Positions 12,017 through 38,917 of a stretch of DNA of 64,000 nt are shown piece by piece; the first letter of the stretch is position 1, and each line of letters opens with the position of its first letter. The stretch spans positions 1,630,946 to 1,694,945 of the forward strand of contig JAKVOM010000001.1 of NCBI GenBank assembly GCA_022482815.1. The letters run 5' to 3'. The position numbers and the translations under genes were made by a program. The notes below the pieces were generated by a model, which ran no database searches, was not told where the DNA came from, and saw only the letters and a program-made list of their open reading frames with translations. Origin of the DNA: Acidaminococcus sp. (GTDB taxonomy: Bacteria > Bacillota > Negativicutes > Acidaminococcales > Acidaminococcaceae).

Positions 12017-12147
12017 GGCAGATAGCAGTTGGCAGGCAGCCGATAGCTGCAGTTGGCCAAAGTAATAAAAGTGGACAGTGGTTAGTGGCTGGTGGTTAGT
12101 ACAATCGTGCGGGCAGCCACCTTGTACGGATTCTTGAGATAGATCAT
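12017..12147 (-). repeat. Reverse-oriented copy of the heptamer/AAGAATCC-core element
   Basis: Reverse complement reads CTATCTCAAGAATCCG..GCCCGCACGATTGTACTAACCACCAGCCACTAACCACT, followed by GCTATC-type heptamers. Confidence 0.8.
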
Positions 12148-17352: not shown

Positions 17353-18960
17353 ATGAAAATAAGATTCCTGGGTGCCGATAAGATTGTGACTGGTTCTTGC
17401 CACATGTTGGAAGTCAACGGCAAGAAAATTCTTCTGGACTGTGGTATGTTCCAGGGGTCCAAGCTGATTCGCGACCTGAACCGCCGGGAATTTGATTTTA
17501 ATCCCGGTGAAATCGATGCCGTAGTGCTGAGCCACGCTCACGTCGATCACAGCGGCCTTTTGCCGAAGCTTGTAAAAGAAGGCTACAAGGGACCGATTTA
17601 CTGCACCCATGTGACCAAGGAATTGTGCGAAATCCTGCTTCCTGACTGTGGCCATATTCAGGAACAAGATGCCGAAATCGCTACCCGTAAAGGACTGCGT
17701 GCCGGCCGTACCGAAGTAAAACCACTGTACACGGTGGATGATGCCTACCTGGCACTCAAACAGTTTGTGACTTACGATTATGATGAGAATGTGGAAATCC
17801 TGCCGGGTGTGACCATCCGGTTCCGCGTGGCCGGTCATATTCTGGGCAGCGCCCTCGTCAATGTGATGATCAATGAAAACGGAAAGGAAACCAAGATCAT
17901 CTTTACCGGCGATATCGGACAGCCGAATGTCCCGATTCTTGATGATCCTTATCAGATTTCCGGCGCTGACTTCATCATTACGGAATCGACTTATGGCAAC
18001 AGGCTCCACGAAATCGGTGACCGCGAAAAAGAGCTTCTCGATATCATGAAGGAAGCGCTGGCCCGCGGCGGCAACGTCATTATTCCTGCTTTCGCCGTCG
18101 GCCGTACCCAGGTCATGCTCTACTATTTCCAGAAACTGATGTCGTCCGGACAGCTTCCGACCGTTCCCATCATGGTCGATAGCCCGATGGCTATCAAAGC
18201 AACGCAGGTCATGCTGGTGAACCCGGACGAATATGATGAAGAAGCAAAGACCATTTTCCAGCGTCAGGGCGGCAAGCTCATCAATATGAAGAATGTGCAC
18301 TATACCGAGACAGCTCAGGAATCCCGTGCCATCAACGAGATGCCCAGCCCGATGATTATCATCTCCGCATCCGGTATGGCCGATGCCGGCCGTGTCCTGC
18401 ACCATCTGAAACATAACCTGTGGCGAAAGGACAGCTCGGTCATCTTCGCCGGCTATCAGGCGGAAGGCAGCTTGGGACGCCGGCTGATTGACGGCGCCCG
18501 CAAAGTAAAGATTATGGGTGAAGACATCGTCGTCGGTGCCAAGATTTATAACATGACCGGTTTCTCTGCGCACGCCGACAGAGATCAGATGCTGAAGCTC
18601 TACAAAGGCATGAAGAAAAAACCGAAAGCGTTCTTCGTTGTCCACGGTGAATATGACGCAACCCGTTCGTTTGCCGATACGCTGCGGACCGAGCTGGGAA
18701 CAGCAGCTTATGTGCCGAATTACGGAGATACCGCTATTATCGAAGGCACGGAATGGCATGTCGAACCGGCAAAAGTGGTCCTCAAGGAACCGGCGCTGCA
18801 GGAACTCAACGAAGCACTCCGTGGTCTGGAAAAATTCTACTTCAACTACAAAGCACGCGTCCTTCGCCGCGTAATGCGCGACGTTACCAAAGTGCCTGAA
18901 ATGAAGGCAAAGATTGAAAAGATCAAGAAGTACGTCGAAGATCTCATGAAGAATGTGTGA
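17353..18960 (+). CDS. MBL-fold beta-CASP ribonuclease-like metallo-hydrolase
   Basis: LDCG, SHAHVDH, AGHILGS, FTGDIG, ESTYG, PAFAVGRTQ, FSAHAD. Confidence 0.92.
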   Translation: MKIRFLGADKIVTGSCHMLEVNGKKILLDCGMFQGSKLIRDLNRREFDFNPGEIDAVVLSHAHVDHSGLLPKLVKEGYKGPIYCTHVTKELCEILLPDCGHIQEQDAEIATRKGLRAGRTEVKPLYTVDDAYLALKQFVTYDYDENVEILPGVTIRFRVAGHILGSALVNVMINENGKETKIIFTGDIGQPNVPILDDPYQISGADFIITESTYGNRLHEIGDREKELLDIMKEALARGGNVIIPAFAVGRTQVMLYYFQKLMSSGQLPTVPIMVDSPMAIKATQVMLVNPDEYDEEAKTIFQRQGGKLINMKNVHYTETAQESRAINEMPSPMIIISASGMADAGRVLHHLKHNLWRKDSSVIFAGYQAEGSLGRRLIDGARKVKIMGEDIVVGAKIYNMTGFSAHADRDQMLKLYKGMKKKPKAFFVVHGEYDATRSFADTLRTELGTAAYVPNYGDTAIIEGTEWHVEPAKVVLKEPALQELNEALRGLEKFYFNYKARVLRRVMRDVTKVPEMKAKIEKIKKYVEDLMKNV

Positions 18961-18964
18961 TAAT

Positions 18965-19090
18965 CGCAGGTCGCTGGCCGCGTGTCGCCGGTCGCGCTGT
19001 AAGCAGCCAAGATGCCGTAGGCACTTGGCGGAAATGAATTCCGCGGGCCGCTGGCCGCCATGGGAAGAGGTAAACCGCGCGGTGGTTTGC
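18965..19090 (+). repeat. (nnGTCGC)n heptamer plus palindrome element (two sub-units)
   Basis: GGTCGCT GGCCGCG TGTCGCC GGTCGCG then CTGTAAG and a hairpin; begins 5 nt after the upstream stop codon. Confidence 0.8.
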
Positions 19091-19249: not shown

Positions 19250-19675
19250 ATGGCAATGAAACGCAAGTACTTTACGGAAGAAGAAATAGAACTGCTGAAG
19301 AAAAATCCGTATACCTTCCATGTTAACAGAGGACAGATTTTTTTCACAGTCGAATTCAAAAAAGCTTTCTTGAAATTGTACGACTCCGGGGTACCAGCCG
19401 CCGTGGCCGTCCGTAAGCTCGGGTATGATCCTGATATCCTTGGAAAGGGCCGCATCAACAGCATTAAAAGAAATGTAAACGACCAGTTGACTCATGCCGG
19501 AGAGCTTCACGAAGGACCTCATAAAAAGATTTCCCTTCAGCAGTTGTCCGCTCAATCCTCATCGGCCGAAATTGCCCGCCTGAAGCAGGAAGTAGCTTAT
19601 CTCCGGGAAGAAGTAGAGTTTATGAAAAAAAGCCTTGCCCTTGCCAGAAAAGGTGCCAAAAAAAGAAAGCGATAA
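19250..19675 (+). CDS. HTH protein resembling IS3/IS150-family OrfA (orphan, no OrfB)
   Basis: FTEEEIELL..NPY, FT.EFK, LGYDPDILG..RI, and a C-terminal zipper EIARLKQEVAYLREEVEFMKK. Confidence 0.7.
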   Translation: MAMKRKYFTEEEIELLKKNPYTFHVNRGQIFFTVEFKKAFLKLYDSGVPAAVAVRKLGYDPDILGKGRINSIKRNVNDQLTHAGELHEGPHKKISLQQLSAQSSSAEIARLKQEVAYLREEVEFMKKSLALARKGAKKRKR

Positions 19676-19812: not shown

Positions 19813-19883
19813 AAGAATCCGCCAAGGCAACTGCCTGCACGGGTGTGCTAACCACTCTTTCCACTAACCACTACCCACTTTTT
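19813..19883 (+). repeat. AAGAATCCGCC-core/CTAACCA heptamer element
   Basis: Same core as at 26651, 32339, 46924, 53963 and 63799. Confidence 0.8.
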
Positions 19884-21940: not shown

Positions 21941-22255
21941 GTGCAAGATGGAGCAAGTTATGGCTATGATGAGGAACGCCGGTATGGTTCCGGTTCTCTG
22001 CATGTGCTTTCCCGGCCAACCCTTCGGATGGCGCTGAGAGTTCCGGATTCAATTGACAGAATCATGAAGTACGGGGAACTCATTGTGGAAGGAAACGCCT
22101 TGCTTGTAGATTATTCCGAGCTCAGTGATGACCTTGCCGTCCGCGCTATGGACTATCTTTCCGGTGTGGCTTACGCAGTCGATGCGACGGAAACCGAAAT
22201 TACCATTAACGTCATTCTTTATATGCCCCGAGGGGCAGAAACAATTAAAGGCTAA
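21941..22255 (+). CDS. sepF: Cell division protein SepF-like
   Basis: Resembles the SepF C-terminal domain (RAMDYLSGVAYAVD); GGAGG RBS. Confidence 0.7.
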   Translation: MQDGASYGYDEERRYGSGSLHVLSRPTLRMALRVPDSIDRIMKYGELIVEGNALLVDYSELSDDLAVRAMDYLSGVAYAVDATETEITINVILYMPRGAETIKG

Positions 22256-22264
22256 GAAGTTAGC

Positions 22265-22301
22265 AGCACCTGTTTTTCCCAGTGAAGAACAGGTGCTCTT
22301 T
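22265..22301 (+). terminator. Terminator after sepF
   Basis: AGCACCTGTT...AACAGGTGCT followed by CTTT. Confidence 0.65.
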
Positions 22302-22318
22302 GTAGTATAATATAAAGA

Positions 22319-22428
22319 CGCTGGTCGCGGGTCGCCACTGGTGGAAGCAAACCGATAATCGGTTTGCAAAAACGCAGTTCGCGGTTTGCAGGTCGGACTG
22401 GAGGAGGCAAACTGCATGGCAGTTTGCA
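22319..22428 (+). repeat. (nnGTCGC)n plus GCAAAC..GTTTGC palindrome element, upstream flank of the four-helix-bundle gene
   Basis: Two heptamer+hairpin sub-units. Confidence 0.8.
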
Positions 22429-22588
22429 GTGAATAAAGGAAACCAGTCACACCCTGTGAAATAAAGTGTTTCGATCTGCAAAAATCAATAAGCGCACTCA
22501 CTGCCGATTATCGGCGGGTTATGTATAGAAAAACTACTAAATCTAAACAACATTTACAGTAATTAGTTGCAGAAAGAGTGATAATATC

Positions 22589-22954
22589 ATGGGCATCAAA
22601 AATCATCGCGATTTTGAAGTCTGGAATCGAGCTATGGATTTAGGCGAAGAAATTTATCGTTTGACCAAACTCCTTCCTGATGAAGAAAAATACGCAATGT
22701 CCAGCCAATTAAGGAGAGCATCAATTTCAGTGCCTTCCAATATTGCTGAAGGCAAAGAGAGACATTCAGATAGAGAATTTCTCCATTTCTTAAATTTTGC
22801 CGGCGGCTCAGTTGCCGAACTGGATACACAGTTAAGACTGGGCGTTCGTGTCGGCTTGTTTACAGAGTGTGATGTTGAAAAAGCATTAGACTTGTGTACA
22901 CATGTTAAGATGATGCTAAATGCGTTGATTCGCAGAATATCTTCAGATTTGTGA
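22589..22954 (+). CDS. Four helix bundle protein (23S rRNA IVS protein/Avd-like family)
   Basis: HRDFEVW..AMDL, P.EEKY...SQLRRAS.SVPSNIAEG, EF..FL..A.GS..ELDTQL signature; AT-rich codons. Confidence 0.92.
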   Translation: MGIKNHRDFEVWNRAMDLGEEIYRLTKLLPDEEKYAMSSQLRRASISVPSNIAEGKERHSDREFLHFLNFAGGSVAELDTQLRLGVRVGLFTECDVEKALDLCTHVKMMLNALIRRISSDL

Positions 22955-23043
22955 CTAGCAAAATAGCAAGATAAAAGTGCTATTCAGAAGTACTAAAAAA
23001 TATTAAAAAAGCCAGGAGCTGAATGCGACTGGCAACCTACAGA

Positions 23044-23108
23044 GCGACGCGCGACCAGCGACGTGCGACCCGCGAAATAGAAGCTAACAAATCGCTTTGC
23101 GATTTGGC
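23044..23108 (-). repeat. Inverted (GCGACnn)n heptamer array plus palindrome, downstream flank of the four-helix-bundle gene
   Basis: GCGACCAGCG and GCGACCCGCGA are exact reverse complements of 22319-22328 and 22325-22335. Confidence 0.8.
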
Positions 23109-23130
23109 TTGATTAAGTAAGGAGTTATTC

Positions 23131-26100
23131 ATGTCCGATCAGTTTGTTCATTTACATACGCATACGCAGTACAGCCTGCTTGATGGGGCGTGCCGTATTC
23201 CTGAACTTGTGCAGTTTGCCAAGGAGCAGGGGATGCCGGCACTTGCCATCACCGACCATGGTGTGATGTACGGCGTTATCGAATTCTATCGGGAATGCGT
23301 AAAAAATGATATCAAGCCGATTATCGGCTGCGAAGTCTATATTACGTCCGGTTCCCGTCACAAAAAGAACCTGGAATCCCGCGGCAAACTGTATCATTTG
23401 ATTCTTCTCGCTGAAAACAGGACGGGATACCAGAATTTGATGAAACTGGTCTCTATCGGTCAGGTGGAAGGGTTCTATTATAAACCCCGTATCGATAAGG
23501 AAGTTCTCCGCAAGTACCATGAGGGACTTATCTGCCTGAGCGCCTGTGTGGCCGGTGAAGTGCCTCGCCACATCGTGCGCGGGGAACTGGAGACTGCCGA
23601 AAAAGTCATGCTGGAATACCTGGACATTTTCGGGCCGGACCATTATTATCTCGAAATCCAGAATCACGGTCTGCCGGAAGAAAAAACGGTTTCCGCCGAA
23701 CTGCATCGCCTTGCGGCTAAGCACCACGTGAAACTCGTGGCGACGAACGACCTTCACTATGTGAAAAAGGAAGATGCCGCCGGTCAGGATATGCTGCTCT
23801 GCATCCAGACGGGCGCGCATTACCTTGAACCGGACCGCATGCGGTTCAACAACGACTCTTACTATTTGAAGAGCCGGGAAGAAATGGAAGCTATCTTCCC
23901 CGATGATCAGGAAGCTCTCGATAATACGCTGGAAATTGCGCAGCGCTGTGATCTGACGCTTGAATTCGGACATCTCCTGCTGCCGGAATTTCCGCTCCCC
24001 GAAGGGGAAACTTCTATGGATTCCTACTTGCGCAAGCTGTGCGAAAAAGGTTTTGGCGAGCTTTATCCCAATGATGACGGCACGGCTAAAAAGCGCATGG
24101 AATACGAGCTCGGCATCATCAAGCAGATGGGGTATTCTGGATATTTCCTGATTGTCTGGGATTTCATCAATTACTGCCGTACACACGACATTCCTGTCGG
24201 ACCCGGCAGAGGCAGTGCCGCCGGCAGTATTGTGGCGTATCTTACGGGAATCACGGATATCGATCCCCTGAAATATAATCTTATTTTTGAACGTTTCCTT
24301 AATCCGGAACGCGTGAGCATGCCGGATATTGATACGGATATTGACTACGTGAAGCGTCACCTCGTCGTGGAATATCTGGCAAAAAAATACGGCGAAAGCC
24401 ATGTCGCTCAGATTGTGACGTTCGGTACGCTGGCAGCCAAAGCGGCTGTCAAGGATGTCGGAAGGGCTTTGGAAATCCCGCTTAATGTGGTGAACCAGGT
24501 CAATAAACTCATTCCTAACACGCCGGGTACGACACTGCAAGGCGCTATTGAGGGCAGTAAGGAACTGGCCCAGATGCGGGACGAGAACCCCAGCATTGCC
24601 CAGCTCCTCAATTTTGCCGAGCGCGTCGAAGGTATGCCGCGTCATACGTCGACCCACGCGGCAGGCGTTGTCATCACGCCGGGTAAACTGACGGACTATG
24701 TGCCGCTCCAGATTACGTCGAGCAGTGACGACGACCATGAATATATCTGCACGCAGTATGATAAAGATTGTTCCGAATCCCTGGGCCTTCTGAAGATGGA
24801 TCTTCTGGGTCTTCGGACCCTGACCGTCATTGATGACTGCATCAAGATGGTGAAGAAGAACCAGGGCATCGATATTGATATCAGGCACATTGACCTGGCC
24901 GATCCGAAGACCTGTAAAATGCTTTGTGACGGTGATACGGCCGCCGTGTTCCAGATGGAATCGAACGGCATGACGCGCCTCATGAAACAGCTGGCTCCGG
25001 AAAATATGGCAGACCTCATTCCGCTGGTTGCCCTCTACCGCCCGGGCCCTCTGGGCAGCGGCATGGCAGAGGACTTCATTGCCGGCCGTCACGGCAAACG
25101 GACAGCAAAGGTGCTGCATCCTCTGATGGAGCCCATTGTCGCCGATACGTACGGCGTCATCCTGTACCAGGAACAGGTTATGCAGATTGTGTCCGCACTG
25201 GCTGGTTTTACCCTCGGCGAAGCTGATATTCTTCGCCGTGCCATGGGAAAAAAGAAAGCCGCACTCCTGGACAGCATGAAGGAAAAATTCATCGACGGCG
25301 CTGCCAAGTGCCACCAGATTGAGCGTCCTCTTGCCGAGCAGATTTTCGCTTTGCTGCAGCACTTTGCCGGTTACGGCTTCAACAAATCCCACTCGGCGGC
25401 ATATGCCCTCGTGGCCTATCAGACCGCGTATCTGAAGGCGAACTTCCCTGTCGAATATATGGCAGCGTTCCTCAACAGCGTGATTACCGTGGCAGAAAAA
25501 GTCAGCTGGTATATCAACGTCTGCAAGGACATGGGCATCAAGGTGCTGCCGCCCGATATCAACACGAGTGAAGCCGGTTTTTCTGTCGACGGAAAGACCA
25601 TTCGCTTCGGTCTCGGCGCTATCAAGAGCGTCGGCGACGCCGCCGTTGATGTCATTTTGGAAGAACGGGAAAAGAACGGCCCGTTCAAAGATTTCTTCGA
25701 TTTTGCCAACCGCGTCGATATGACTAAAGTCAACAAACGCGTCGTGGAAAATCTCATTAAGAGCGGTTCCATGGATACTTTCCATCTGAAACGCTCGCAG
25801 CTCCTTGCCATTATGGACCAGGTCCTTGATGCGGCCGCACTGAATCAGAAAGACCGTATGATGGGAGCGATTGGTCTCTTCGGGGATGAAGAACAGCAGC
25901 AGGCGACGATGATACCGATTCCGGATCTGCCGGAGATCCCGAAGGAGGAAATCCTGCGCCTTGAAAAAGAGTTGATTGGTTTTTATGTGACGGGACACCC
26001 TCTCGAGGAATACCGGGCGGCGCTCTCCGCGATGACGCCGATTGCCCGCTGCACCGACGAAAACTTCCGTGACGGCGACCGCATCGACGTTGGGGGCATT

Positions 26101-26553: not shown

Positions 26554-26554
26554 A

Positions 26555-26875
26555 GGCCGCGGGTCGCGTGTCGCAGGTCGCACCGTATGTAGCAAACCGG
26601 CAGGCGGTTTGCAGGAATTAAAAAGGTAACTACGGCCTGCGAACTTCCTCAAGAATCCGCCAAGGTGGCTGTTTGCACGGGTGTACTAACCCCTAGTCAC
26701 TTAACCGCTAACCACTTTAAGATGAGGCTAAAAGCCAAATGCCAAATGCCAAATGCGCCTTTGCTCTTTAAGCAAGCCGATTAAAAATATTATTGCGGTT
26801 GTACTAACCACTTGCCACAAACCACTATCCACTTTTAACTAGGCTAAAAGCCATATGCTAAACGCTAAAAGCGAT
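26555..26875 (+). repeat. Composite heptamer element: GTCGC-hairpin left part, AAGAATCC core, CTAACCA and GCTAAAA/GCCAAAT heptamers
   Basis: All heptamer sub-families occur in order between dnaE and the U32 gene. Confidence 0.85.
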
Positions 26876-26920
26876 TTTATTCTTAAATTTCCATTTTCAC
26901 TGAATCATTAAGGAGAACTC

Positions 26921-32260: not shown

Positions 32261-32465
32261 CGCTGGCCGCGCTGTAGGAAGCAAACCAACGAGCGGTTTG
32301 CAGGGAATAAAAACTAATTGTTATGTGCAATCTATCTCAAGAATCTGCCTAGGCGGCTGCCCGCACGATTGTACTAGCCACTTTTGTAACTGCAATCGAG
32401 GCTAAAAGCTAAACGCCAAAAGCTAAAGGCGCTTTTATTTTCTATCTGCAATCGGCTATCTGCTT
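32261..32465 (+). repeat. Composite heptamer element (hairpin, AAGAATC core, GCTAAAA heptamers)
   Basis: Same modules and order as 26555-26875. Confidence 0.8.
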
Positions 32466-32989: not shown

Positions 32990-33091
32990 GAAGCAAACCG
33001 ACAAGCGGTTTGCGACGAATAAAAAATAAAAATCGGGTCTCTTGCGAGGCTCGATTTTTTTGTATAATAGTTCAGTGCGATAGAAAAGGTT

Positions 33092-33735
33092 GAAAACAGC
33101 CTCGCGCCTTGATGAAGCCAAATCAAAGATTTGGCTCAATTCAATTAGGACGATGCTTGATCGTACCCATTCATGCGGTCTGAATGAATACCCACCGCAG
33201 ACGGAATGGCCTGACGATATCAGGCCATTCCTGCGGTCCTCCTTAATCAACTATCCTCCACCACTCCGTGGTCCGCCCTCCTTCCGAAGGAGGTTGTAGA
33301 GGAATTCCAAACCTAACGGTTTGGCTTAACTAAGGCGAACAGAGGGCAAAAGAGGTGCGAAAATTTCACTTGTGTCTTCTCTATTTCAAAAAGCAGCTCT
33401 TTAGGGTTAAAACATTCTATCCTCCATCGCAAGCGATTCTCCTTAACTTACTTTCCTCCGCCACTTCGTGGTCCGCCCTCCTTCCAGCGGAAGGAGGTTG
33501 TAGAGGAATTCCAAACCTGACGGTTTGGCTTAACTAGGGCGACGTGAAAGAAGGTCCGGACGTAGCAATGCTTCGCATTGCCTGAATAAATAAAATGAGC
33601 TGCGTTTTTTCACCGTAGAAGTGTTATATTTTTGTCTCTGCTATCGGATACAGATAGTTAAAAGAAATTTAAGGGTCATCATCCCCCGCAAAGCGGGCCC
33701 CCTTCTTCAATGTCGCACAGCGACGTCGAAGAAGG
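33092..33735 (+). repeat. Mosaic double-hairpin repeat block, copy 1
   Basis: Long similarity to 41932-42450, 46020-47035 and 53245-54075. Confidence 0.9.
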
Positions 33736-33984
33736 TCTCTAAAAATTTACCGCCGCAATTTTTTAATTTTATTTTTACTAAACTGACACAGGAGGTGAGG
33801 TTTAGTTTCCATGGGCGACCTGCGACGCGCGTCCCTGCAGTTGTCTTGCATCAGAGTCCATCAGAAACGAATTAAGGCCGATTTCAGCGGCTGGGGGTGA
33901 AGGCTTTGGTCTCCTTTGTCGGCCGGTCGGAAAGTCGCTGCAGGCGGGCTAAATGCCATACGCTGAATGCACTTTTCAGCCATC

Positions 33985-34080
33985 TGCAGCTATCGGCTAA
34001 CTGCTAACGGCTATCTGCCTTGGGCTTTGCCTAACAACCTGCCCGCACGGGTGTGCTAACCACTACTCACTAACCACTGC
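33985..34080 (+). repeat. GCTATC/GCTAAC heptamers plus GCCCGCACG core plus CTAACCA heptamers
   Basis: Same modules as 849-950. Confidence 0.75.
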
Positions 34081-34092
34081 CGCTACTTTCCC

Positions 34093-34121
34093 TTGCAGTC
34101 CTTTTTTGTTCATGTTATAAT
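34093..34121 (+). promoter_or_regulatory. Promoter of the pheST leader
   Basis: TTGCAG-17 bp-TATAAT with an extended TGn. Confidence 0.7.
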
Positions 34122-34142
34122 ATTTTCATTAAATTTCATACT

Positions 34143-35396
<1,254 letters not shown>

Positions 35397-38200: not shown

Positions 38201-38278
38201 GGCCCAGTAGTTCAGTTGGTTTAGAATGCCGCCCTGTCACGGCGGAGATCGTCGGTTCAAGTCCGTCCTGGGTCGCCA
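38201..38278 (+). tRNA. tRNA-Asp (GTC)
   Basis: Cloverleaf, anticodon loop CTGTCAC, 3' CCA. Confidence 0.95.
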
Positions 38279-38280
38279 AT

Positions 38281-38355
38281 GCGGAAGTAGCTCAGTGGTA
38301 GAGCATCACCTTGCCAAGGTGGGGGTCGCGAGTTCGAATCTCGTTTTCCGCTCCA
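38281..38355 (+). tRNA. tRNA-Gly (GCC)
   Basis: Cloverleaf, anticodon loop TTGCCAA, 3' CCA. Confidence 0.97.
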
Positions 38356-38356
38356 T

Positions 38357-38430
38357 AGGAGTATAGTTCAATGGTAGAGCAACGGTCTCCAAAACCGTGG
38401 ATCTGGGTTCGAATCCTAGTACTCCTGCCA
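38357..38430 (+). tRNA. tRNA-Trp (CCA)
   Basis: Cloverleaf, anticodon loop CTCCAAA, 3' CCA. Confidence 0.97.
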
Positions 38431-38623: not shown

Positions 38624-38735
38624 TAAGAACATAAAAACAACTTTTTATGTTCTTATATGTTGCTAAGAGCAAAAAAACCACATTTTTTGTTCTTAACTGT
38701 TACTAAGAGCAAAAAAACGCAATTTTTTGTTCTTA
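38624..38735. repeat. Three 32-bp palindromes at an exact 40-bp period
   Basis: Units TAAGA(A/G)CA...TGTTCTTA start at 38624, 38664 and 38704. Confidence 0.9.
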
Positions 38736-38917
38736 AAGTAATTCAACAAGCTTTGAAAATACATATCTTGTCTTTCTTTGACTGCCACTACGCATATTTT
38801 GCCGAATATTGTGGCGATTTTATAACTACATCGACTTGTCACTTGGCATTTAAATAATTTATAATAAGAATAATAAAATTATTTAAAATACTTTTATCGC
38901 AAGGAAGTGATTGGACG

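Follow-up and report, generated by a model that had tools for sequence, protein, structure and literature searches.

A four-helix-bundle gene between inverted heptamer arrays in the dnaE leader of an Acidaminococcus genome, a probable intervening-sequence-type cassette outside rRNA

The PF05635/TIGR02436 family of four-helix-bundle (4HB) proteins is also called the 23S rRNA intervening sequence (IVS) protein family and is related to Avd, the accessory protein of diversity-generating retroelements (DGRs). To our knowledge, the family has no known function outside DGRs, and the sole context in which it has been studied is the IVS of 23S rRNA. In the 23S IVS of Coxiella burnetii, the S23p open reading frame (ORF) is preceded by 2-3 tandem GACAGAT heptamers, the number of which varies between strains, and the 28-bp terminal stem includes the heptamers, with RNase III cutting at the first repeat (PMC4990558). 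ORF-containing 23S IVSs are also seen in Leptospira, Haemophilus and Brucella (PMC4990558). Avd itself is a small, basic, pentameric protein that binds nucleic acid (PMC10053308). In addition, surveys of CRISPR systems have recorded the 4HB family inside cas loci, without explanation, and a published gene table for Flavobacterium lists a 4HB gene 35 and 33 nt from gmk and nadD. Here we describe a 4HB gene lying between sepF and dnaE in a 64-kb stretch of DNA from Acidaminococcus sp. (64,000 nt of contig JAKVOM010000001.1; hereafter the window, with positions counted from its first letter), where it is enclosed by inverted arrays of a GTCGC-type heptamer. An earlier note on this DNA had proposed that gene and arrays together form a mobile unit or an IVS-like RNA stem. 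We found that the gene and its arrays are a lineage-specific insertion and that the same layout recurs across the family.

The insertion becomes apparent in relatives in which the sepF-dnaE interval is empty, that is, without the 4HB gene. These relatives were found via a small SepF-like neighbor (two homolog clusters, at 97% and 62% identity) and a TypA cluster mate, and they represent three related lineages, L006, L007-L012 and L093/L094, with flanking DNA identity to the window of 89-92% in L006 and 79-88% in the other two. The order typA-sepF-dnaE is kept in every empty-site context, with a spacer of 115-151 bp. All lineages share the sepF terminator hairpin, the sequence GTAGTATAAT, which is identical in the window and all relatives and equivalently positioned upstream of dnaE, a short leader with a small hairpin, AAGGAG and the dnaE ATG. 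The window departs from this shared sequence about 1-7 nt past the TATAAT box (BLAST similarity to L006 stops at 22297) and rejoins it around 23076-23088. Since the shared sequence is broken and then resumed relative to the empty sites, the intervening ~776 bp is an insertion gained in the window lineage. Judged from the empty sites, its ends are no more than a few bases away from the two inverted arrays, both of which are missing at every empty site read, and the interval is identical in the five gene-bearing contigs read. The proposal of a mobile unit is therefore supported in the sense of an insertion with its ends at the arrays, and the refuting condition set in the earlier note does not hold: the gene is not fixed at this locus, and its homologs do have inverted heptamer arrays in their flanks. 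The TATAAT box is the putative -10 element of dnaE, with no call at this site by a promoter consensus scan. The insert begins ~7 nt past it, roughly at the presumed transcription start of dnaE, and the cassette now makes up the first ~0.8 kb of the dnaE leader. The coding content of the insert is the 4HB ORF alone, and a Pfam search of it gave no transposase or recombinase fold.

The 4HB gene is an intact, AT-rich orphan. In a Pfam profile search its product matches the full PF05635 model (23S_rRNA_IVP) with E 4e-36 (123.9 bits versus a cutoff of 33.8), the match spanning residues 7-112 against a model of 106 positions, and it matches TIGR02436, 'four helix bundle protein', with E 2e-35 (121.2 bits versus a cutoff of 24). 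All 17 of the 17 family-invariant columns in an alignment of 30 sequences are kept, the family motifs R..S..SNIAEG and GS..E..TQ are both present, and the length of 121 aa compares with an expected ~120 aa. The window protein is thus a member of PF05635/TIGR02436 by every sequence criterion, and the earlier assignment to an IVS/Avd-like four-helix bundle is borne out, as is the earlier remark that the gene is more AT-rich than its surroundings (ORF GC 0.40 versus 0.50 in the remainder of the window). Its closest solved relative is PDB 2GSC (XCC0516; E 1e-25), deposited with five chains and described as a toroidal homopentamer (PMC4990558). The exact protein was found on 7 contigs, the next relative in a search of 5.8 billion clustered proteins is 56% identical, and the nearest relatives are spread over many phyla. 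The family is a very large one, with more than 1,000 relatives recovered for this single query and at least 600 pattern-matched stretches in a genome scan. A search of the 64-kb window gave no second 4HB copy, BLAST against the window and all fetched loci gave no DNA-level relatives of the insert spacers, PADLOC gave no defense-system match to the interval, and Rfam gave no known RNA family there (window at the gathering threshold; 22200-23200 at E up to 5).

Weak similarity to Avd models (NF033474, 22.1 bits; phrog_3206, E 1.6e-5) raises the question of whether the gene is a remnant avd of a DGR. We regard this as highly improbable, as the NF033474 score compares with an equivalog cutoff of 80, the neighbors are sepF and dnaE, and the empty sites show a ~0.78 kb insert alone. 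A DGR context was likewise rejected on the grounds that no reverse transcriptase (RVT domain) is encoded within 10 kb on either side and that the Avd score is below the cutoff.

Table 1. Features of the sepF-dnaE interval, in window positions
Feature	Position	Strand	Remarks
sepF terminator-like hairpin, 14-bp stem	22265-22297	+	ancestral, outside the insert; kept in L006, L007-L012 and L093
TATAAT box within TTTGTAGTATAAT	22306-22311	+	ancestral, putative dnaE -10 element; same sequence in all relatives
Lineage-specific insertion, ~776 bp	~22313-23088	+	missing from empty sites; each end uncertain by several bases
Left heptamer array, CGCTG-GTCGCGG-GTCGCC	22319-22336	+	pairs with 23044-23060 in predicted minimum free energy and centroid folds
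Two resident-type hairpin modules	22337-22428	+	32-nt direct repeat, 60 nt spacing
Hairpin GCAAACCGATAATCGGTTTGC	22347-22367	+	first resident-type module
Hairpin GCAAACTGCATGGCAGTTTGC	22407-22427	+	second resident-type module
Small hairpin CTGCCGATTATCGGCGG	22501-22517	+	AT-rich spacer upstream of the ORF
4HB protein gene, 121 aa	22589-22954	+	PF05635/TIGR02436 family match
Right inverted heptamer array	23025-23075	+	degenerate GCGACTG GCAACCT, then core units
Hairpin CAAATCGCTTTGCGATTTG in the dnaE leader	23088-23106	+	probably ancestral; related ATCGCAGTCTGCG hairpin equivalently placed in L006
AGGAG ribosome-binding site	23120-23124	+	followed by the dnaE ATG at 23131

The left array comprises 2-3 copies of GTCGCnn, and the core of the right array (23044-23075; GCGACGC-GCGACCA-GCGACGT-GCGACCC-GCGA) comprises 4.7 heptamer copies, with degenerate units from 23025. 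As stated in the earlier note, two upstream stretches have exact reverse complements downstream: CGCTGGTCGC (22319-22328) corresponds to GCGACCAGCG at 23051-23060, and TCGCGGGTCGC (22325-22335) to GCGACCCGCGA at 23065-23075. The order of these matches is A,B...A',B', and hence they are not nested; the best continuous inverted match is one of 17 nt at 94% (22319-22335 versus 23044-23060). The exact matches therefore reflect two arrays of the same family with several possible pairing registers, as opposed to a single long stem. The sequence GTCGCNNGTCGC occurs 10 times in the window versus 0.14 expected, a count reached in 0 of 100 shuffles. Its minus-orientation copies are limited to three at 23044-23069 and a weak one at 33815, the right array being the sole multi-copy minus-orientation array of the GTCGC family within the window. 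Further GTCGCnn arrays are found at 18984, 26563, 44389-44419 and 63711-63727. The GTCGC arrays belong to a genome-wide intergenic family, and shared exact 10-11-mers between arrays are therefore to be expected.

A palindrome had also been noted beside each array. Palindromes do adjoin both of them, at 22347-22367 and 23088-23106, the right-hand one apparently being part of the ancestral dnaE leader and not of the element. The left-hand hairpins are of a type dispersed over the window: GCAAAC...GTTTGC hairpins likewise trail GTCGC arrays at 19070, 26592, 32281 and 32993, and the pattern GCAAACCG-N5-CGGTTTGC gives 7 matches versus 0.2 expected (sites 19070, 22347, 22407, 26592, 32281 and 32993). 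These hairpins, which resemble repetitive extragenic palindromes (REPs), have conserved stems and variable loops, usually directly follow a GTCGC array and lack a U-run past the stem.

We surveyed 80 homologous loci from many phyla, among the matches listed (one genome per species, 30-protein alignment), for inverted heptamer arrays of the kind seen in the window. The genome of the window itself is not among them. With flanks of 350 nt before and 250 nt after the ORF, the best ungapped inverted match between the two has a mean of 14.75, as against 8.16 (sd 1.2) for flanks mismatched between loci. With 150-nt flanks, a score of at least 12 is reached at 38 of 77 loci versus 1.8% of controls, and direct (non-inverted) matches are far rarer than inverted ones. 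Period-7 arrays occur at 4.8/kb in the 100 nt before the ORF and 5.2/kb in the 100 nt after it, compared with 0.08/kb beyond 500 nt; in the same survey period 8 is weakly enriched near the ORF, and periods 5, 6, 9 and 10 show no enrichment there. The matching flanks carry, close to the ORF, inverted arrays of units of about 7 nt such as GAGTGAC, GCAGTGG, AGTGGTT, AGTCATT or GTGAAAC, with the complements downstream. Across the surveyed loci the median copy number is 4.4 (quartiles 3.6-4.9, few above 5), a peak partly shaped by the detection threshold. Upstream arrays typically stop 0-30 nt before the ATG and are rich in G and poor in C, and downstream arrays show the opposite bias. An independent set of 32 viral contigs likewise has period-7 arrays at 3.25/kb near the ORF versus 0.295/kb.

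The siting of these genes is equally consistent. By a crude ORF call, the 4HB gene and both its neighbors share one orientation at 58 of 73 loci, and the gaps to the neighbors have medians of 61 and 56 nt. Two cassettes with tightly placed inverted heptamer arrays separate groES from groEL (L202, 1050-1650) and, in a BREX operon, pglZ from brxL (L031, 3944-4407); another has trkH and a gene for an SLH protein as neighbors, and yet another a DsbD-like gene and one for a response regulator. The 18 best loci all lie outside rRNA genes. The GC content of the ORF is below that of its flanks at 94% of loci, by 7.3 points on average, and AT-richness is thus a trait of the family. A 4HB gene set between inverted heptamer arrays and fitted tightly among co-oriented host genes is accordingly a family-wide feature. 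The published occurrences in cas loci and between gmk and nadD of Flavobacterium fit this cassette picture. In the literature we found heptamers described for Coxiella alone and no account of the family-wide layout; this search did not cover all journals, and an earlier description is possible.

A further parallel to the IVS emerges when the segment 22318-23135 is folded as RNA. In the minimum free energy and the centroid structure alike, pairing of 22320-22335 with 23044-23060 closes the cassette (z = -7.7 versus shuffles). No convincing internal promoter was found for the 4HB gene: TTTACA and GATAAT stand 21 nt apart, too far from each other, and the sole scan hit, at 22332-22359, is weak. 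No terminator was found after the 4HB ORF either, and transcription from the dnaE promoter therefore probably covers the cassette and then dnaE. On balance we favor, as probable, the explanation that the locus is a compact selfish cassette of the IVS type that sits outside rRNA, depends on the host promoter for its transcription and is looped out when its arrays pair. Under this proposal, the dnaE promoter would transcribe the cassette, itself devoid of a promoter or terminator of its own, and the GUCGCnn array would pair with the nnGCGAC array in the transcript, thereby looping out the ORF. By analogy with the Coxiella IVS, the resulting stem could be a substrate for RNase III, cleavage by which would leave dnaE with a near-native leader. 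Restoration of the leader by looping or cutting out would explain why insertion before the essential dnaE, or inside groESL, is tolerated, and the co-orientation of cassettes with their neighbors would follow from their being co-transcribed and looped out.

Several observations weigh against this explanation. The predicted closing stem is short and interrupted, with 10 + 5 bp plus minor pairs. Stem mismatches at 44 homologous loci comprise 45 of the G:U type and 57 of the A:C type (p = 0.28), and without a G:U excess selection for pairing in the sense RNA is not demonstrated. The predicted IVS-like stem, as envisaged in the earlier note, draws its support from the folds and from the Coxiella analogy. 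The window arrays stand well off the ORF, 253 nt before its start and 90 nt past its end, where the usual distance is 0-50 nt, and a search for decayed 'donor' arrays beside the ORF gave no period-7 signal in 22430-22588 or 22955-23043. At the borders of the insert, ATAAAGA (left) and ATAGAAG (right) are loosely alike and no target-site duplication is definable, the leader being strongly diverged from L006. Moreover, the window arrays are of the resident-genome type, though the gene looks imported, and the left array and its hairpins, which are of the resident-module type, may have arrived separately from the gene.

The last of these points leads to a composite origin without a functional link, in which a resident array-hairpin module expanded after sepF, the orphan gene was inserted separately and the inverted placement of the arrays is coincidental. 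There are ~13 intergenic heptamer arrays across the 64-kb window. GTCGC arrays also stand behind an RNase J-like gene (Lactamase_B/Beta-CASP) and behind dnaE in L006, where the gene is missing, and other spacers of the window and of L006 contain unequal numbers of the array/hairpin modules. In their design (array, hairpin, degenerate array, hairpin), the leftmost 110 nt of the insert match the resident double module that follows the RNase J-like gene, which in the window ends at 18960, and the left array is unusually distant from the ORF. Nevertheless, we judge this origin improbable, given that the sole multi-copy reverse-orientation array of the window adjoins the gene, that both arrays are missing from every empty site, and that the inverted layout recurs, far above controls, around homologs from dozens of unrelated genomes and from viral contigs.

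The window has other intergenic repeats. A second family is formed by a conserved block of ~60 nt, AAGAATCCGCCAAGG...GCACGGGTGTRCTAACC, continuous with an ACTAACC/CCACTnn heptamer array. The window contains 7 copies of it versus 0.01 expected, at 19820-19880, 26650-26720, 34030-34080, 46948-46964, 53987-54003 and 63800-63863 on the + strand and at 12070-12110 on the - strand; its AGTGGTT/AACCACT unit flanks 4HB genes in L014, L026 and L031. A third heptamer family, GCTAAAA/GCCAAAT/GCTAAAC, occupies 26724-26761, 26840-26870 and 32401-32427 in the same intergenic regions, and its copy number differs from that in L006. The spacer between dnaE and the peptidase U32 gene measures 367 bp in the window (26554-26920) versus 634 bp in the ~90%-identical L006 (9862-10494), owing to a change in the number of array and hairpin modules. 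The intergenic array/hairpin modules turn over quickly.

The array unit itself varies from genome to genome. Of 54 cases of solo arrays located away from the cassette but within its 8-kb locus, 19 have 6-mers in common with the cassette arrays, versus 0.9% for other loci. Pairs of loci with common array 5-mers have a protein identity of 54% versus 48% (permutation p ~0.002), a correlation of unit and protein similarity that is partly confounded by host relatedness. These two results bear indirectly on the suggestion in the earlier note that the protein may be a trans factor for the solo heptamer elements. In L039, L057 and L074, from different phyla, the unit is GAGTGAC throughout and the proteins are 63-69% identical. 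In a metagenome scan for GTCGC x4, 3 of 120 matches carry a 4HB gene, adjoining the array in all three, and GTCGC arrays are therefore no marker of the 4HB family; the matches are mostly unrelated high-GC contigs, none of which resembles the window. Very long solo period-7 arrays (9-30 copies) are present in L021 (5765-5876), L053 (4941-5152) and L040 (5600-5660), downstream of the 4HB gene by ~1.2-1.5 kb in L021 and L040 and by ~0.6 kb in L053, where the unit family is identical to that of the cassette arrays.

Such traveling of gene and arrays together, as the similar proteins with the same unit in different phyla appear to show, would also be expected if the arrays act on DNA, as terminal inverted repeats of a foldback-like transposable cassette recognized by the 4HB protein or by a host or other recombinase in trans, with the pairing in RNA incidental. 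The insertion polymorphism with ends that coincide with the arrays, the lack of a G:U bias among stem mismatches, and the scatter of same-unit solo arrays within the same loci, reminiscent of miniature inverted-repeat transposable elements (MITEs), are all compatible with this. Against it, the insert is without a transposase or recombinase fold, a target-site duplication was looked for and not found, the family consists of small helical bundles without known catalytic activity, and the window arrays are of the resident and not the donor type. The prevailing co-orientation with the neighbors, along with the G-rich upstream and C-rich downstream arrays, points instead to a strand-specific constraint at the level of the transcript. 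Near-identical copies of the insert are lacking as well, there being no second copy in the window and no homolog above 56% identity in the database. Hence we hold a role of the arrays in DNA to be rather unlikely.

A different possibility, compatible with the favored IVS-type cassette, is that the arrays are putative binding sites of a ring-shaped 4HB pentamer, which would contact about one heptamer per subunit in a TRAP-like manner. Binding to its own mRNA would then control translation or processing, and the solo arrays of the genome would be further targets. The five chains of 2GSC and its description as a toroidal homopentamer agree with such a ring, as does the clustering of the flanking arrays at 3.6-4.9 copies, a peak that owes something to the detection threshold. 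Most upstream arrays end within 0-30 nt of the ATG, protein similarity tracks unit similarity, solo arrays have the unit of the cassette arrays, and Avd is known as an RNA-binding scaffold. On the other hand, L006 has GTCGC arrays without a 4HB gene at its sepF-dnaE site, few of the metagenomic GTCGC x4 arrays adjoin such a gene (the 3 of 120 above), and the window arrays are distant from the ribosome-binding site. We therefore offer binding by a pentamer as a tentative idea. With comparable reserve, one may conceive of PF05635 proteins and heptamer arrays as one widespread system, in which a pentamer recognizes ~4-5 heptamers in RNA or single-stranded DNA, the gene travels as an array-bounded cassette, and solo arrays resembling the short tandemly repeated repetitive (STRR) arrays of cyanobacteria are its non-autonomous products or targets.

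The remainder of the window holds several further features. A stand-alone ORF of 141 aa with an HTH_Tnp_2 domain (PF20310) lies at 19250-19675, with the RNase J-like gene on one side and typA on the other; the window and L006 both have it, and the more distant L007-L012 and L093 do not. A tandem repeat with a 205-bp unit (2.2 copies, 91% identity) spans 53242-53696, and a pair of ~190-nt repeats (33230-33540) is found in the long non-coding stretch 33000-34100, which also contains the weak GCGAC x2 array at 33815. Past three tRNA genes (38201-38427) comes a tandem repeat with a 40-nt unit and 2.8 copies (38624-38737). Two structured RNAs were identified, namely a T-box leader (108.5 bits; 34141-34331) upstream of 34365-35396 and a DUF3800-I RNA (85.7 bits; 42595-42708) just upstream of the ORF at 42722-43417. 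Within an ORF of 1399 aa (48665-52864), the 12-nt unit GCGACGACCACA is repeated six times at 98% identity (51251-51322).

The combination of inverted period-7 arrays, tight co-oriented siting and presence or absence between close lineages turns what was an anecdote of rRNA into a general class of elements, whose sites include essential operons, groESL and the dnaE leader among them. It also offers a possible explanation for the genome-specific heptamer arrays of many bacteria. In practical terms, 4HB cassettes are easily taken for operon members in annotation, for example when they are counted as 'CRISPR-associated'. If proteins and arrays did form one system, this would provide a function for a very large family and account for the origin of the heptamer arrays, in a manner analogous to REPs and their RAYT proteins, with a non-enzymatic, Avd-like nucleic-acid scaffold in place of an enzyme.

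Among known mobile elements, DNA transposons and MITEs resemble the window element in having inverted repeats at the ends of the insert and differ from it in that it has neither a transposase nor multiple near-identical copies. Foldback (FB) transposons are similar in form only, with terminal inverted repeats made of short tandem repeats; they are eukaryotic, much larger and of other coding content. RAYTs are homologs of Y1 (HUH) transposases, and REPs are palindromes of ~20-30 nt. As in REP/RAYT systems, the window gene has on its two sides inverted copies of a repeat that also occurs scattered between genes (solo GTCGC arrays at 18984, 26563, 44389 and 63711), an arrangement that by analogy suggests a protein acting in trans on dispersed repeats. 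However, the window repeats are tandem heptamers and the protein is a helical bundle without a known catalytic motif; Pfam and NCBIfam give four-helix-bundle families alone, with no homology to Y1/HUH transposases. STRR arrays, which are tandem heptanucleotides of heterocystous cyanobacteria, have no described gene partner. They share with the window arrays their intergenic placement, genome specificity and variable copy number, and we found no link between STRR arrays and PF05635 in the literature. The resemblance of the window element to REP/RAYT systems and STRR arrays is thus one of form only. With Avd there is a homologous four-helix-bundle fold, whereas the reverse transcriptase and the template and variable repeats of DGRs are lacking near the window gene, whose product scores below the Avd equivalog cutoff; we are not aware of any Avd gene described as lying between inverted arrays of heptamers.

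The ORF-bearing 23S IVS follows the same plan. The window element is nevertheless not such an IVS because its site, between sepF and dnaE, is an mRNA leader and not an rRNA, to which the window has no match. It further differs from the Coxiella IVS, where the heptamers are found just upstream of the ATG, in the 253 and 90 nt that separate its arrays from the ORF, and in having a predicted stem that is shorter and interrupted, as opposed to one of 28 bp for which cleavage by RNase III has been shown. Common to both are an ORF of the same family (S23p, PF05635) between terminal inverted repeats and tandem heptamers within the stem, represented in the window by GTCGCnn x2-3 and GCGACnn x4.7, and both are regarded as selfish elements.

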